A stretch of DNA of 51,799 nucleotides from Candidatus Pacearchaeota archaeon (GCA_017608405.1 JAFCFX010000003.1:1-51799), one strand, 5' to 3'. Positions 42,650 to 45,646 are shown, counted from the stretch's first letter. Translations and numbers: made by a program. The notes: generated from the sequence alone by a model not told the origin.

Positions 42650-43024
42650 ATGGCAAAGGAATATGAAACCAAAGTAAAAAAACTAATTGATTTTAAAACA
42701 GGTGCAAAAAGAGATAGTAATCTGGGTAAAGGAGCATTTGAATTAATTAGTCCTATTGCATTAGCAAGATTATCAAAAGTCTATGAAAGAGGAGCTGTTC
42801 AAAAAGGGGCAAGAAACTGGGAACAGGGCTTTCCAATGAGCAGGGGAGTCCAGTCTGCAATAAGGCATATATTTCAGTTTTTAGAAGGAATGAGAGATGA
42901 AGATCACTTGGCTCAAGCAGCATGGAATTTATTTGCAGTCATGCATTTTGAAGAATGTATAGAAAGGGGCATTCTTCCAAAAGAATTAAATGATTTGCCA
43001 GATTATATTAAGGAAAATGAGTAA
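42650..43024 (+). CDS. phage-type dATP/dGTP diphosphohydrolase-like domain protein (DUF5664-like)
   Basis: KRDSNLGKGAFELISPIALARLSKVYERGAVQKGARNWEQGFPMSRGVQSAIRHIFQFLEG..EDHLAQAAWNLFAVMHF matches my memory of the family consensus (K..D.gK.r.dLip...l..la.v...Ga.KY...NW..G......l.a..RH). Confidence 0.55.
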   Translation: MAKEYETKVKKLIDFKTGAKRDSNLGKGAFELISPIALARLSKVYERGAVQKGARNWEQGFPMSRGVQSAIRHIFQFLEGMRDEDHLAQAAWNLFAVMHFEECIERGILPKELNDLPDYIKENE

Positions 43025-43385
43025 AAATTTAGTCATGAAGTCGCGGATAAGAAAAATTAAGCAAGTTCCTAGAAAGACCTGTGGAAGTTGTAGTCACGAA
43101 AAAAATTTTGAAGATTATGGGGATGAAGAGAGTCATGATGAAGAAAAAAAAATAGAAATTTCAGAGAGAGAATTTGATATGACTGTAGATGAGGTTTTAA
43201 AGAGAAACTATCAAGAAGCAGATACTTTAACTATAGAAAGAAGAGAATATCAAGATTTAATGTATGTAAAAGGAAGAGATAAAAAATATGATGGCAAAAG
43301 ATTAGTTTATTATAAACAAGGAAAAAGCATAGGATATAATGTGGTTGACAAGGAAGAAGCTGGATTCAATAACGGAGGAAAGTAA
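43017..43385 (+). CDS. hypothetical protein
   Basis: 122 aa from ATG 43017 (8-nt overlap with the upstream ORF); CGSCSH near the N-terminus, acidic middle; no family recognised. Confidence 0.45.
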   Translation: MSKNLVMKSRIRKIKQVPRKTCGSCSHEKNFEDYGDEESHDEEKKIEISEREFDMTVDEVLKRNYQEADTLTIERREYQDLMYVKGRDKKYDGKRLVYYKQGKSIGYNVVDKEEAGFNNGGK

Positions 43386-43664
43386 ATGCCTTATATACCA
43401 GAAGAAGATAAGAAAAAATACGAACCTGCATTGACTCAATTAAGGGCAAAACTAAAAGAACTTAATCTTGGAGATGGGGTGGCAAAGGGGGAATTAACAT
43501 ATCTAGTTTTTGCCCTCGGATTAGAATTTTTCAAAAATAGAGAATCTTATACTAATATTAGTAATTCTATAAGTTGTTTAAATGATGCTGCTGAAGAAAT
43601 AAGAAGAAGATGCTTAAATGACTATGAAAACAAAAAAATCCAAGAAAATGGAGATGTATTGTAA
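43386..43664 (+). CDS. small phage-associated protein family (GELxYL ... ENGDV)
   Basis: MPYIPEEDKKKYEP...GELTYLVFALGLEF...SYTNISNSISCLNDAAEEIRRRCLNDYENKKIQENGDV resembles a conserved small phage/prophage family recalled from memory; the ATG abuts the upstream stop. Confidence 0.5.
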   Translation: MPYIPEEDKKKYEPALTQLRAKLKELNLGDGVAKGELTYLVFALGLEFFKNRESYTNISNSISCLNDAAEEIRRRCLNDYENKKIQENGDVL

Positions 43665-43717
43665 TTTATACATTTTATCACAATAGAATTTAAAAAGAAA
43701 ATTTGTTTTGTTTTTTT

Positions 43718-44134
43718 ATGGAAAGAGAGCGTGTTTATTTTGGGCATCCTGTAAACTTATATCATACCCCTAAAGAAGCTGAATTAGAACAAAAAATTAA
43801 TGAATTTTTTCCTGAACTTAATATTGAAAATCCAAATAGAAAGATCCATGGGGAAGGTTACCAAACTTGGAAGAAAAAGACTGGAAATGGCATGAAATAT
43901 TTTTATAATCAAGTGTTGCCAAATGTAAAAAAAGGAATTTTTTTGCCTTTTGAAGATGGAAAATTTGGAGCAGGAGTTTTTAAAGAAGCTAAGTGGTTAG
44001 CAGATAGGGGTGTTGATATTTATGAAATTAATTTAAATGGAGAAATAACTAAAATAAAAAATCTAGATTCAATTAGGTGTCTGAGTATTGAAGAAACAAG
44101 AAAAAGAGTTTATGGAGATAAAAATGGCGTTTGA
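43718..44134 (+). CDS. hypothetical protein, possibly with a nucleoside 2-deoxyribosyltransferase-like fold
   Basis: RVYFGHPVNLYHTPKEAE...IENPN...GIFLPFEDGKFGAGVFKEAKWLADRGVDIYEI loosely follows the Rossmann-like NDT/DUF4406 layout; weak call. Confidence 0.4.
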   Translation: MERERVYFGHPVNLYHTPKEAELEQKINEFFPELNIENPNRKIHGEGYQTWKKKTGNGMKYFYNQVLPNVKKGIFLPFEDGKFGAGVFKEAKWLADRGVDIYEINLNGEITKIKNLDSIRCLSIEETRKRVYGDKNGV

Positions 44135-45509
44135 TAAAAAAACATATGTTATAACTTCTGCACAAGCTGTTGGAGATTATGATGATAGAAGGAGGCATCT
44201 TAAAGGAGCGCCAAATACAAATCTTCTTGCAGGATTAGAAGCGTATTGTCTAGAATATAATGCAGAAATGGCGATTCTCACAATGAAAGGACAAAATGCA
44301 AACGAGGCAATCTTGCATCCTGCACTTCAAGATAGAAAAGATCTCTTATGGCCAGACCAAAGAAATAAAAGGCTAAACCATAATGTTACTATTTCTGATA
44401 TGATTGTGCCCCCACAAAATATTGATCCTGCAACAGGAAGAGGAAGATTTGTTCAGGAAGACACAAGTTTAATTTATGCTCATCCAAAGCAAAGATTAAA
44501 ACCTGTTGCATCAAGTAATAGAAAATTGCCAAAGCTTTTAGCAACAACAGGCGCACTTACTCATCCTAATTATAATGAAACAAATCATAGGGGAGATGTT
44601 GCTGCAAGAGATCATTCTTATGGGGCTGTTGTAGTTGAAATTATTGATGATGATAATTATAATCTTAGACATATGAGGGCGCAAGGGGATGGAAAATTTA
44701 TTGACATGGGGATTAAATTTAATGGAGCAAGAAAATCCACCAAAACAAATGTAGAAGCTTTGGTTTTAGGAGATATTCACTGGGGGGATGAAGATGAATC
44801 AACAATAAAAGCAAATTATGAAATGATTGATTATTTCAAACCCAAAAGATTATTTTTACATGATTTTGTAAATGGGCACAGTGTTAATCCTCATAAAAGG
44901 GAAAACTTAATCACTAGGGCTCAAGAATATAAAAAAGAGAGATTAAGTATTGAAATAGAATTAAAAAAAGCATATGCAGAACTTTGTAAATTATCCAAGG
45001 CGATGGGAAAAAGAGAAGTGAATCTTGTTGCTTCAAATCATGGTTTTTTTTTAGATAGATATCTTGAATCAGGCGCATTTATACATGAGCCTTGGAATCT
45101 AAAAATTGCTTTAAAATTAGGAGAAAAAATGGTTGAGGGAAAAGATCCTATTAAAGAAGGAATTAAAATGATGGGAAAAGTTCCAAGTAATGTTAATTTT
45201 TTACAATTAAGAGAAGATTTAAAAAGATGGGGATGGCAACTTGGGAGCCATGGTCATAAAGGGGTTTCTGGTGCTCGTGGGAGTGTTAATAGTAGGGAGA
45301 TTGGATGGGGAAAAAGTATTACAGGACATACTCATGCACCTGAAATATTAAGAAATACTATTATTGTGGGAACAAGTACAAAACTTGAACTTCCTTACAC
45401 AGAAGGGGGAGCAAATTCTTGGATGGGTGCTAATGCACTTTTATATGAAGGAGGGCTTGTTCAATTGATCCCGATTATTAATGGTAAATGGAAAGGCAAG
45501 AAAAGATGA
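44124..45509 (+). CDS. two-domain protein: unknown N-terminal ~210 aa plus a C-terminal calcineurin-like metallophosphoesterase
   Basis: LVLGDIHWGDED, LFLHDFVNGHS, LVASNHG, GSHGHKG, ITGHTHAPE in canonical MPE order; start set at ATG 44124 (MAFDKK), an 11-nt overlap with the upstream ORF. Confidence 0.65.
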   Translation: MAFDKKTYVITSAQAVGDYDDRRRHLKGAPNTNLLAGLEAYCLEYNAEMAILTMKGQNANEAILHPALQDRKDLLWPDQRNKRLNHNVTISDMIVPPQNIDPATGRGRFVQEDTSLIYAHPKQRLKPVASSNRKLPKLLATTGALTHPNYNETNHRGDVAARDHSYGAVVVEIIDDDNYNLRHMRAQGDGKFIDMGIKFNGARKSTKTNVEALVLGDIHWGDEDESTIKANYEMIDYFKPKRLFLHDFVNGHSVNPHKRENLITRAQEYKKERLSIEIELKKAYAELCKLSKAMGKREVNLVASNHGFFLDRYLESGAFIHEPWNLKIALKLGEKMVEGKDPIKEGIKMMGKVPSNVNFLQLREDLKRWGWQLGSHGHKGVSGARGSVNSREIGWGKSITGHTHAPEILRNTIIVGTSTKLELPYTEGGANSWMGANALLYEGGLVQLIPIINGKWKGKKR

Positions 45510-45646
45510 TTGAAAAAGTTACAAGGTTTGGAACAGATGTATTTGCAGATGTTGAGAGGGATAACTTAAGAAAAGAAAGATGTTTATGTCTAAATTGTAA
45601 AGATATGTCTGATTGTGAAACAGCCAAAGATCCTCGTCGAGGTTGA
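45506..45646 (+). CDS. short Cys-containing ORF, possibly the truncated last gene of the cassette
   Basis: 46 codons, ATGA overlap with the upstream stop; MIEKVTRFGTDVFADVERDNLRKERCLCLNCKDMSDCETAKDPRRG*; below the ORF-track cut-off. Confidence 0.3.
   Translation: MIEKVTRFGTDVFADVERDNLRKERCLCLNCKDMSDCETAKDPRRG

Follow-up and report, generated by a model that had tools for sequence, protein, structure and literature searches.

A six-gene island beside the rRNA operon

The window analysed here, a stretch of 51,799 nucleotides (nt) from Candidatus Pacearchaeota archaeon (GCA_017608405.1, JAFCFX010000003.1:1-51799), is contig C23 of a 535-kb archaeal metagenome-assembled genome (MAG; 26 contigs, ~76% complete, ~30% GC) of the small DPANN (Nanoarchaeota) type, and carries an archaeal rRNA operon. 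The rRNA operon is separated from the genes for enolase, ribosomal protein S2 and a LigD 3'-phosphoesterase (LigD-PE) by six open reading frames (ORFs), O1 to O6 (Table 1). We propose, with somewhat more confidence than doubt, that this block is an intact accessory island of virus-type nucleotide-metabolism genes that dismantles and recycles foreign DNA and deoxynucleotides. The virus-type enzymes of the island probably break DNA and deoxynucleoside triphosphates (dNTPs) down to deoxynucleotides and then rework them. Judged by sequence comparison, the island would comprise two parts. Part A, made up of O4, O5 and the truncated O6, appears to be a pair that recurs in DPANN archaea and has stayed in this place ever since a sister lineage split off. 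It joins a divergent relative of the nucleoside 2'-deoxyribosyltransferases (NDTs) to a metallophosphoesterase (MPE) of the T5 A1 type. Part B, O1-O2-O3, corresponds to a module of DUF5664, NDT-like, DUF6899 and MPE genes found on head-tailed viral contigs, and was probably added from a virus.

An earlier, sequence-only reading of this locus had described six co-directional, coupled ORFs with three overlaps, one abutment and a single gap, and we reproduced all of its coordinates and junctions. Six tightly coupled genes on the same strand, five of them with homologs, are more than a chance arrangement, and the public collection's gene calls likewise start O2 at 43017. The TATA box that the sequence-only reading had placed ahead of the block is present as TTTTTATAA, a putative promoter of the island. 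A further TATA-like element, TTTAAAAA, falls in the gap between O3 and O4 and is a possible internal promoter that would allow separate transcription of O4-O5-O6, and TTTATAAA, ahead of the rRNA operon, marks the right boundary. A comparison with the flanks, suggested in the sequence-only reading, found the island typical of the window: in GC content, GC content at third codon positions (GC3) and codon adaptation, all six ORFs lie less than one standard deviation from the window's other 47 genes. That reading had seen neither an integrase nor an att repeat, and none emerged from our repeat search and gene annotation, with only short AT-rich chance repeats flanking the block and no integrase gene. 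None of the six ORFs matched a structural PHROG, and an NCBIfam search returned nothing for them.

Table 1. Features of the island and its flanks, with the zinc-ribbon genes found at related loci. Coordinates are window positions unless preceded by a locus handle; aa, amino acids.
Feature	Coordinates	Strand	Description
O1	42650-43024	+	124 aa, DUF5664; 8-nt overlap with O2
O2	43017-43385	+	122 aa, charged orphan; abuts O3 directly
O3	43386-43664	+	92 aa, DUF6899; 53-nt gap before O4
O4	43718-44134	+	138 aa, divergent NDT/DNPH1 superfamily (putative); 11-nt overlap with O5
O5	44124-45509	+	461 aa, T5 A1-like metallophosphoesterase; 4-nt (ATGA) overlap with O6
O6	45506-45646	+	46 aa, small Cys-motif protein, 3'-truncated
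TATA-like TTTTTATAA	42613-42621	+	~30 nt before O1 start; read directly; putative island promoter
TATA-like TTTAAAAA	43689-43696	+	in O3-O4 gap, ~25 nt before O4 start; read directly
TATA-like TTTATAAA	45663-45670	+	ahead of rRNA operon, 17 nt past O6 stop; right boundary
LigD-PE	42140-42592	-	left flank, 57-nt spacer to O1
16S rRNA	45899-47387		downstream of island, part of archaeal rRNA operon
Zinc-ribbon copies	L037:8785-9009, L031:3966-4190, L244:3039-3269, L246:2446-2661, L250:7585-7806		in relatives

O5 is a putative DNase of the T5 A1 family

O5 matches the profile of the T5 A1 'DNA transfer protein' (phrog_1745) with an E-value of 4.1e-80, residues 28-457 covering profile positions 98-541 of 542, and aligns end to end with T5 A1. 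The motifs GDxH, HD, SNH, HGH/HGD and GHxH are invariant; the corresponding residues of O5 (G216-D217-x-H219, H246-D247, N305-H306, H376 and G401-H402-x-H404) are shared by all nine sequences compared, including T5 A1. The sequence-only reading had divided this 461-aa protein into an MPE and an unknown N-terminal domain. The MPE is confirmed with all its motifs, but the 'unknown' domain is ordinary A1 architecture, spanned by the phrog_1745 match. Homology to T5 A1 thus extends over nearly the whole of O5, the part before the phosphoesterase domain included, at 26% identity. Unlike T5 A1, O5 is chromosomal, falls in a DPANN/Candidate Phyla Radiation (CPR) clade and lacks the first ~90 residues of the phage protein, which are absent from all DPANN/CPR copies (these start at about T5 A1 residue 90). 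We take O5 to be a full-length T5 A1-like MPE and, by homology, a putative DNase. In vivo, T5 A1 is both required and sufficient for the breakdown of host DNA (bioRxiv 10.64898/2026.04.02.716235). T5 pairs A1 with Dmp, a phosphatase of deoxynucleoside monophosphates (dNMPs), and the partners of O5 in the island are a DUF5664 and an NDT-like protein; the island differs from T5 in having neither an A2-like partner nor a two-step DNA transfer context.

The A1 family is present in 1131 phage records, each less than 34% identical to O5. A sequence search of the PDB with the A1 family gave nothing convincing, and a scan of viral contigs with O5 alone returned no relatives, a result that depends on the search pattern and is not evidence of absence. 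In cellular genomes, we compared gene presence across 40 relatives, synteny across ten genomes of the same family and the distribution of A1-like genes across 400 high-quality genomes of the phylum. O5 homologs occur in two of the 40 relatives and A1-like genes in 20 of the 400 phylum genomes (~5%), with eight of the 12 genomes of one family among them. In a quick maximum-likelihood tree (midpoint root, 27 cellular and three viral sequences), the 27 cellular A1-like proteins fall into one clade (SH-aLRT 99) that excludes the sequences of T5 and a Flavobacterium phage as well as one from IMG/VR. Since taxonomic families are intermixed within this clade, the tree indicates horizontal spread.

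The closest match to O5 in the genome collection, at 56% identity, comes from a CPR bacterium, Ca. Buchananbacteria (JAUSEE010000002.1, L007:5391-7341). There the A1-like gene and a DUF4406 NDT-like gene form a divergent pair among housekeeping genes; the A1-like gene is nested in the archaeal clade, which suggests cross-domain transfer between ultra-small symbionts. One family relative (L004:8294-13135, on contig C2 of G016) has its A1-like gene next to a tyrosine recombinase, a serine-recombinase fragment and a Fic-domain gene, a context like that of a mobile element; in the same genome the O4 homolog is on a different contig from the A1-like gene.

O4 resembles NDTs and DNPH1 at the level of fold

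The AlphaFold2 model of O4 has a pLDDT of 94.8, and its best structural matches in the PDB are nucleoside 2'-deoxyribosyltransferases (VIA; Z 8.7, root-mean-square deviation 3.2-3.9 Å over 105-107 residues), followed by DNPH1, ThsB/TIR and MilB. These results support the NDT-like fold that had been suspected from the sequence. Across 25 homologs Y7, D80, G84, G86 and E90 are invariant and E37/N38 nearly so. The N-terminal Tyr and the Gly-x-Gly-x3-Glu motif resemble catalytic residues of DNPH1/Rcl and the NDTs, the groups with the best fold matches (Z 8.7-7), and by position and motif Y7 and E90 (G84-x-G86-x3-E90) would correspond to the catalytic Tyr and the Glu nucleophile. The NDT-like DmtZ, with a Tyr/Asp(Asn)/Glu triad, is a dNMP hydrolase/transferase (PMC12884076). 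O4 differs from DNPH1/Rcl and the NDTs in its shorter length (138 aa, seemingly with one beta-alpha unit fewer) and in having no Pfam match at the sequence level. On the strength of the model we regard it as a putative deoxynucleotide/deoxynucleoside N-glycosidase or transferase.

The Atlas neighbours of O4 are NDT/DUF4406 clusters, and its family comprises 40 close homologs, mostly from MAGs of Nanoarchaeia, with a homolog in one of the 40 relatives. The family is represented by 114 metagenome loci, and a metagenome scan with it returned 80. The corresponding scan of viral contigs found no relatives and, being pattern-dependent, is not evidence of absence. A profile of the family gave nothing relevant against PDB sequences.

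O1 and O3 belong to families typical of viruses

The DUF5664-like domain reported for O1 is borne out by a match to PF18909 (dGTP_diPhyd_N; E 4.9e-16, 58.9 bits against a gathering score of 27, profile positions 2-92 of 99), and the protein also matches phrog_18716 (E 3e-23) and phrog_801, 'dATP/dGTP pyrophosphohydrolase' (E 3e-12). Its family is present in 317 phage records, its closest relative (59% identity) is encoded on a viral contig, and none of the 40 relatives has a homolog. A sequence search of the PDB with O1 matched no solved structure. A stand-alone DUF5664 protein of Arthrobacter phage Wayne hydrolyses dATP, dGTP and dUTP to dNMPs (PMC12884076), and from its sequence O1 is a putative enzyme of the same kind, a stand-alone DUF5664 dATP/dGTP/dUTP pyrophosphohydrolase converting dNTPs to dNMPs and pyrophosphate.

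O3, noticed at first for a GELxYL...ENGDV signature, proves to be a member of PF21840 (DUF6899; E 1.4e-18, 67.7 bits against 27, profile positions 1-85 of 85). The MPY N-terminus, G35, L37, Y39, E71, R74, a YE..K motif and ENGD are invariant in the alignment, and the structural model (pLDDT 82) is an all-helical, four-helix protein that matched nothing in the PDB by Foldseek and nothing convincingly by sequence. We found no mention of DUF6899 in the literature. Its clusters in the ESM Atlas are 81-95% viral, with 288 relatives in IMG/VR and up to 60% identity between O3 and the viral copies, although a tblastn search of INPHARED phages with O3 found no match; three of the 40 relatives have a homolog. 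With phage or viral-contig matches for O1, O3 and O5, the description of these families as virus-typical holds. The contrary picture considered in the sequence-only reading, a universally conserved DPANN core operon, is not what we see: every gene of the block is sporadic among the relatives.

O2 has no homolog beyond itself among 5.8 billion clusters and no Pfam or PHROG match above threshold, and its profile-profile comparison with the viral NDT-like family was not significant; it is putatively coding, judging only by its coupled position and window-typical codon use. The family of O6 (23 relatives at E<=1e-3) is marked by an ...LRKxxCLCLNC... motif, and most of its members are 66-86 aa long and continue into a C-terminal half ('...AMMITRC...') that is missing from O6. 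We rejected the view that O6 is complete: a few relatives of 45-53 aa exist, yet most have the missing half. A 769-aa match to O6 (P0057) was discarded as a low-complexity repeat artefact. O6 had earlier been described as cut short before the rRNA promoter, and the length of its relatives agrees with this. O6 ends at the point where the C-terminal half would be expected to start, and no trace of that half follows downstream in any frame; at its right edge, by the rRNA promoter, the block thus seems to bear the scar of a deletion or recombination event.

A hypervariable slot upstream of the rRNA genes

The order enolase-S2-LigD-PE-16S is the rule in the ten same-family relatives, with LigD-PE adjoining S2 (rps2) in eight of them. 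The spacer between LigD-PE and 16S, which measures 3.0 kb in the window genome, is empty (~250-390 nt) in G020 and G015; in five others it is taken up by small unrelated ORFs (1-1.4 kb). This interval is a hypervariable slot, and the junction between rps2/LigD-PE and the rRNA genes is a hot spot for accessory genes in this family.

LigD-PE itself is well defined (PF13298, E 1.9e-39, 134.5 bits against a cutoff of 31.1; TIGR02777, E 3.7e-52, 176 bits against a cutoff of 144). Because it adjoins rps2 whether or not the island is present, we do not count it as an island component, and the idea that it belongs to the block was dropped. The sequence-only reading was therefore right about its position, stand-alone and divergent across the spacer, but not about its link to the block. 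The same synteny bears on an account in which the island serves DNA-end repair, its MPE acting as a Mre11/SbcD-like exonuclease together with the adjoining LigD-PE. This account draws on the adjacency, on the label 'DNA repair exonuclease' (phrog_7339) of related viral MPEs and on the likening of A1 to double-strand-break-repair nucleases (bioRxiv 10.64898/2026.04.02.716235). We nevertheless find it very improbable, since LigD-PE keeps its place in relatives without the island, so that the adjacency is a by-product of synteny. In addition, the island has no ligase, Ku or Rad50-like partner, and the partner genes it does have point to nucleotide chemistry, not end joining.

A sister lineage has a related island in the corresponding place. 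On a 23.9-kb contig (L056), the genes for RpoK, enolase, S2 and LigD-PE (minus strand) are followed by a DeoC-family aldolase (minus strand), an O4 ortholog, an HD-domain protein and an A1-like ortholog, and then by an ASCH protein, a 200-aa ORF, an Ada-type Zn protein and 16S. The 16S of L056 is 88-93% identical to that of the window. Protein identities between the two are 63% for the A1-like protein, 53% for O4 and 63% for LigD-PE, as against 68% for enolase, 79% for S2 and 72% for RpoK. These observations are consistent with O4 and O5 having been inherited at this site from an ancestor shared with the L056 lineage; an independent insertion of both into the hot spot is a possible alternative. 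A third lineage (L037/L031) has O4 alone between S2 and 16S. O3, O4 and O5 occur in window order on L068, and O4 adjoins an A1-like gene in seven loci, including L083, L085, L203 (G055) and L201 (G070).

Several relatives encode a 72-77-aa zinc-ribbon protein (M..ANY.Q.RMNE...C..CG...C.ECG) by the 16S promoter (Table 1). The window lacks this gene, one more that is often found in the slot.

A similar module recurs in viral contigs

The combination of families found in the island recurs in viral contigs as well as in DPANN genomes, as a check of gene order proposed in the sequence-only reading made plain. In the nearest viral contigs (L106, L109 and L112; 30-37% GC) the genes are tightly packed in the order MPE-DUF5664-NDT-like-DUF6899, immediately upstream of terminase/portal genes, with an MPE of 290 aa and an NDT-like protein of 147 aa (LYLAHP...GTPME). 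The order is DUF6899-DUF4406-x-MPE in L110 and DUF4406-DUF6899-MPE in a virus-like contig binned into a related MAG (L016, G017:C65), whose MPE has phrog_7339 'DNA repair exonuclease' as a match (E 1e-41). L161 and L162 (60% GC) bring together an A1-like gene, DUF6899, an NDT-like gene and DUF5664. Using iterated hidden Markov models built in this analysis, we counted neighbours within ±5 kb of 80 viral DUF6899 loci: an NDT-like gene is present in 50, always on the same strand and at most 100 nt away in 24, DUF5664 in 18 and an MPE in eight, with all three in seven.

The window shares with the viral pair the placement of a DUF6899 gene, O3, before an NDT-superfamily gene on the same strand; it differs in that the O4 family is DPANN-typical, whereas the viral partners are DUF4406-like. 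Profile-profile comparisons of the O4 family with the viral 147-aa NDT-like family, and of the A1 family with the phrog_7339-type MPE, were not significant. Because these comparisons find no link, O4 and O5 share superfamilies with the viral module but are not orthologs of its members. As far as sequence comparison can tell, what island and viruses have in common is a recurring module of four superfamilies. Searches with the viral families against PDB sequences gave nothing convincing.

L016, a 4.4-kb contig, also carries a minor head protein fragment (phrog_115) and genes for a trypsin-like protease and SprT-like proteins. Its DUF6899 protein is 67% identical to O3, and its MPE is 89% identical to one on a 51.6-kb IMG/VR contig (L108); L016 may represent a virus of the window's archaeal family. 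In L108 (6541-8352), and also in L107, the viral MPE ORF is 604 aa long compared with 274 aa in L016, its two homologous parts split by ~1 kb of extra in-frame sequence, which suggests an intein or other inserted element.

These viral relatives raise the question of whether the block is a decaying provirus remnant, that is, early genes left behind by an integrated DPANN virus and without a function in the cell. Such an origin would account for the virus-typical families, for O1, absent from all the relatives yet 59% identical to a viral-contig homolog, for the orphan O2 and truncated O6, and for the same set of families beside terminase/portal genes. We consider a simple remnant, which the sequence-only reading had put forward, unlikely. 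Integrase, att repeat and structural gene are all missing, neither codon use nor GC3 sets the block apart from the rest of the window, and the conserved and catalytic residues are intact. Moreover, the sister lineage has O4 and O5 orthologs in the same slot at identities (53-63%) near those of housekeeping proteins (68-79%), and the separate clade of cellular A1-like proteins argues for long retention under selection.

A different use of the same enzymes is suggested by the DutZ/DmtZ/DUF5664 nucleotide-pool system of PurZ0 Z-genome phages, in which a stand-alone DUF5664 dNTP pyrophosphohydrolase goes together with an NDT-superfamily enzyme acting on dNMPs, in a compact viral gene cluster (PMC12884076). 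With T5 A1 and its companion Dmp, this system comes closest to the island among those known. In a base-exchange scheme of this kind, the DUF5664 protein would make dNMPs, the NDT-like enzyme would swap in a modified base, and the A1-like protein would supply dNMPs from unmodified DNA. The island has the very pair of DUF5664 and NDT-like proteins characterised in that work, the viral versions sit in replication/packaging-proximal gene blocks, and T5 A1 leaves T5's own DNA intact (bioRxiv 10.64898/2026.04.02.716235). The island nonetheless has no PurZ, DutZ or DpoZ, and no PurZ-like or other base-synthesis gene or dedicated polymerase lies in or near it. Its host is an archaeon, it adds DUF6899 and an MPE, and O4 belongs to a different, very divergent NDT branch, not orthologous by profile comparison to the DmtZ-like viral NDTs. 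A modified base in a cellular genome would also require many further functions, and we judge this scheme distinctly improbable.

A proposed route from foreign DNA to central metabolism

The family assignments support the theme of nucleotide pools and DNA chemistry first read from the sequence, and they suggest how the island could dismantle and recycle foreign DNA and deoxynucleotides. The A1-like O5 would degrade DNA of host, viral or environmental origin to deoxynucleotides or oligonucleotides, and the DUF5664 protein O1 would turn dNTPs into dNMPs. The NDT-like O4 would then cleave or exchange the base of dNMPs or deoxynucleosides, releasing free base and deoxyribose 5-phosphate. O3 is a probable accessory partner of the NDT-like enzyme, given their conserved adjacency. 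Because the L056 island adds DeoC and HD-domain genes, we envisage a flow from DNA to deoxyribose phosphate: there, the DeoC aldolase and HD phosphohydrolase would carry it on through deoxyribose 5-phosphate to glyceraldehyde 3-phosphate and central metabolism.

Several points weigh against this reading. The activities of the island proteins are all deduced from the functions of their families, and the nuclease activity of T5 A1 in vitro has yet to be shown (bioRxiv 10.64898/2026.04.02.716235). For O4, Pfam returned no family at E<=0.1, including PF05014 (NDT) and PF14359 (DUF4406); its Z of 8.7 is only middling and places it in the superfamily at fold level; and the assignment of its residues to the NDT triad is inferred. 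The viral NDT-like and MPE genes share no more than superfamilies with O4 and O5, and in the phylum 17 of the 20 A1-like loci are without O4. A constitutively made A1-like DNase should be toxic, and we identified no immunity or regulatory component in the island. The orphan O2 and the truncated O6 hint at some decay. Finally, genes for NrdD, ThyX and thymidylate kinase (Tmk) are present in the genome, so that scavenging would be a supplement and not a necessity. An obligate deoxynucleotide scavenger was considered and rejected in view of these three enzymes, despite our finding no class I/II ribonucleotide reductase in the 76% complete genome.

The same nuclease and dNTP/dNMP-degrading enzymes could instead starve or cut invading DNA upon infection, as an anti-viral defence resembling the dGTPase or dCTP-deaminase nucleotide-depletion systems. 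A sporadic, horizontally mobile island in a hypervariable slot would suit this role, as would the combination of a putative DNase with a dNTP pyrophosphohydrolase; the NDT-fold relatives include TIR/ThsB defence domains, and O4 has a weak match (E 0.0025) to the PADLOC candidate 'Hydrolase-TM'. The defence idea, also present in the sequence-only reading, finds no support in PADLOC 2.0, which gave no convincing match and none of any kind for six of the seven proteins searched. There is also no sensor, regulator or toxin-antitoxin-like partner, viruses themselves carry the same genes, and the sister island includes DeoC, a catabolic enzyme. We give a defence role little credence.

What is new here is the cellular A1-like clade, the pairing of O4 with A1-like genes and the viral pairing of DUF6899 with NDT-like genes. 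T5 A1 has so far been discussed mainly as a phage (Demerecviridae) protein, and the distinct cellular clade offers small, probably soluble orthologs with which to settle whether A1 itself is a DNase. Through its widespread viral pairing with NDT-like genes, DUF6899 gains a first functional context, deoxynucleotide base chemistry. The DeoC gene of the sister island suggests a testable route from foreign DNA through deoxyribose phosphate to central metabolism in DPANN archaea, whose nutrition is poorly understood. Beyond our reading of the island as an accessory recycling module, we raise a more speculative idea that we hold doubtful: episymbiotic DPANN archaea, along with at least one CPR bacterium, may have acquired a T5-type A1 and, with it, partners that process dNMPs (an NDT-like enzyme with DUF6899, DUF5664 and, in some lineages, DeoC and HD). 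This set would serve as a tool encoded by the cell for digesting DNA from host or prey, feeding salvage and glycolysis. If true, a weapon of viral takeover would now serve a parasitic lifestyle, having moved horizontally between ultra-small symbionts.

Other features

In the rRNA operon of the window, the 23S rRNA match (47804-50367) covers 2564 nt against a model of 2987 positions, and its score of 1117 bits is low for its length. In the third lineage, L037 carries a reverse-transcriptase-like ORF of 332 aa (L037:2221-3435) together with an Rfam RT-16 RNA (RF03019, 67.8 bits) between the genes for RpoK and enolase, by its sequence a retron-like or group-II-like insert in this conserved housekeeping block.

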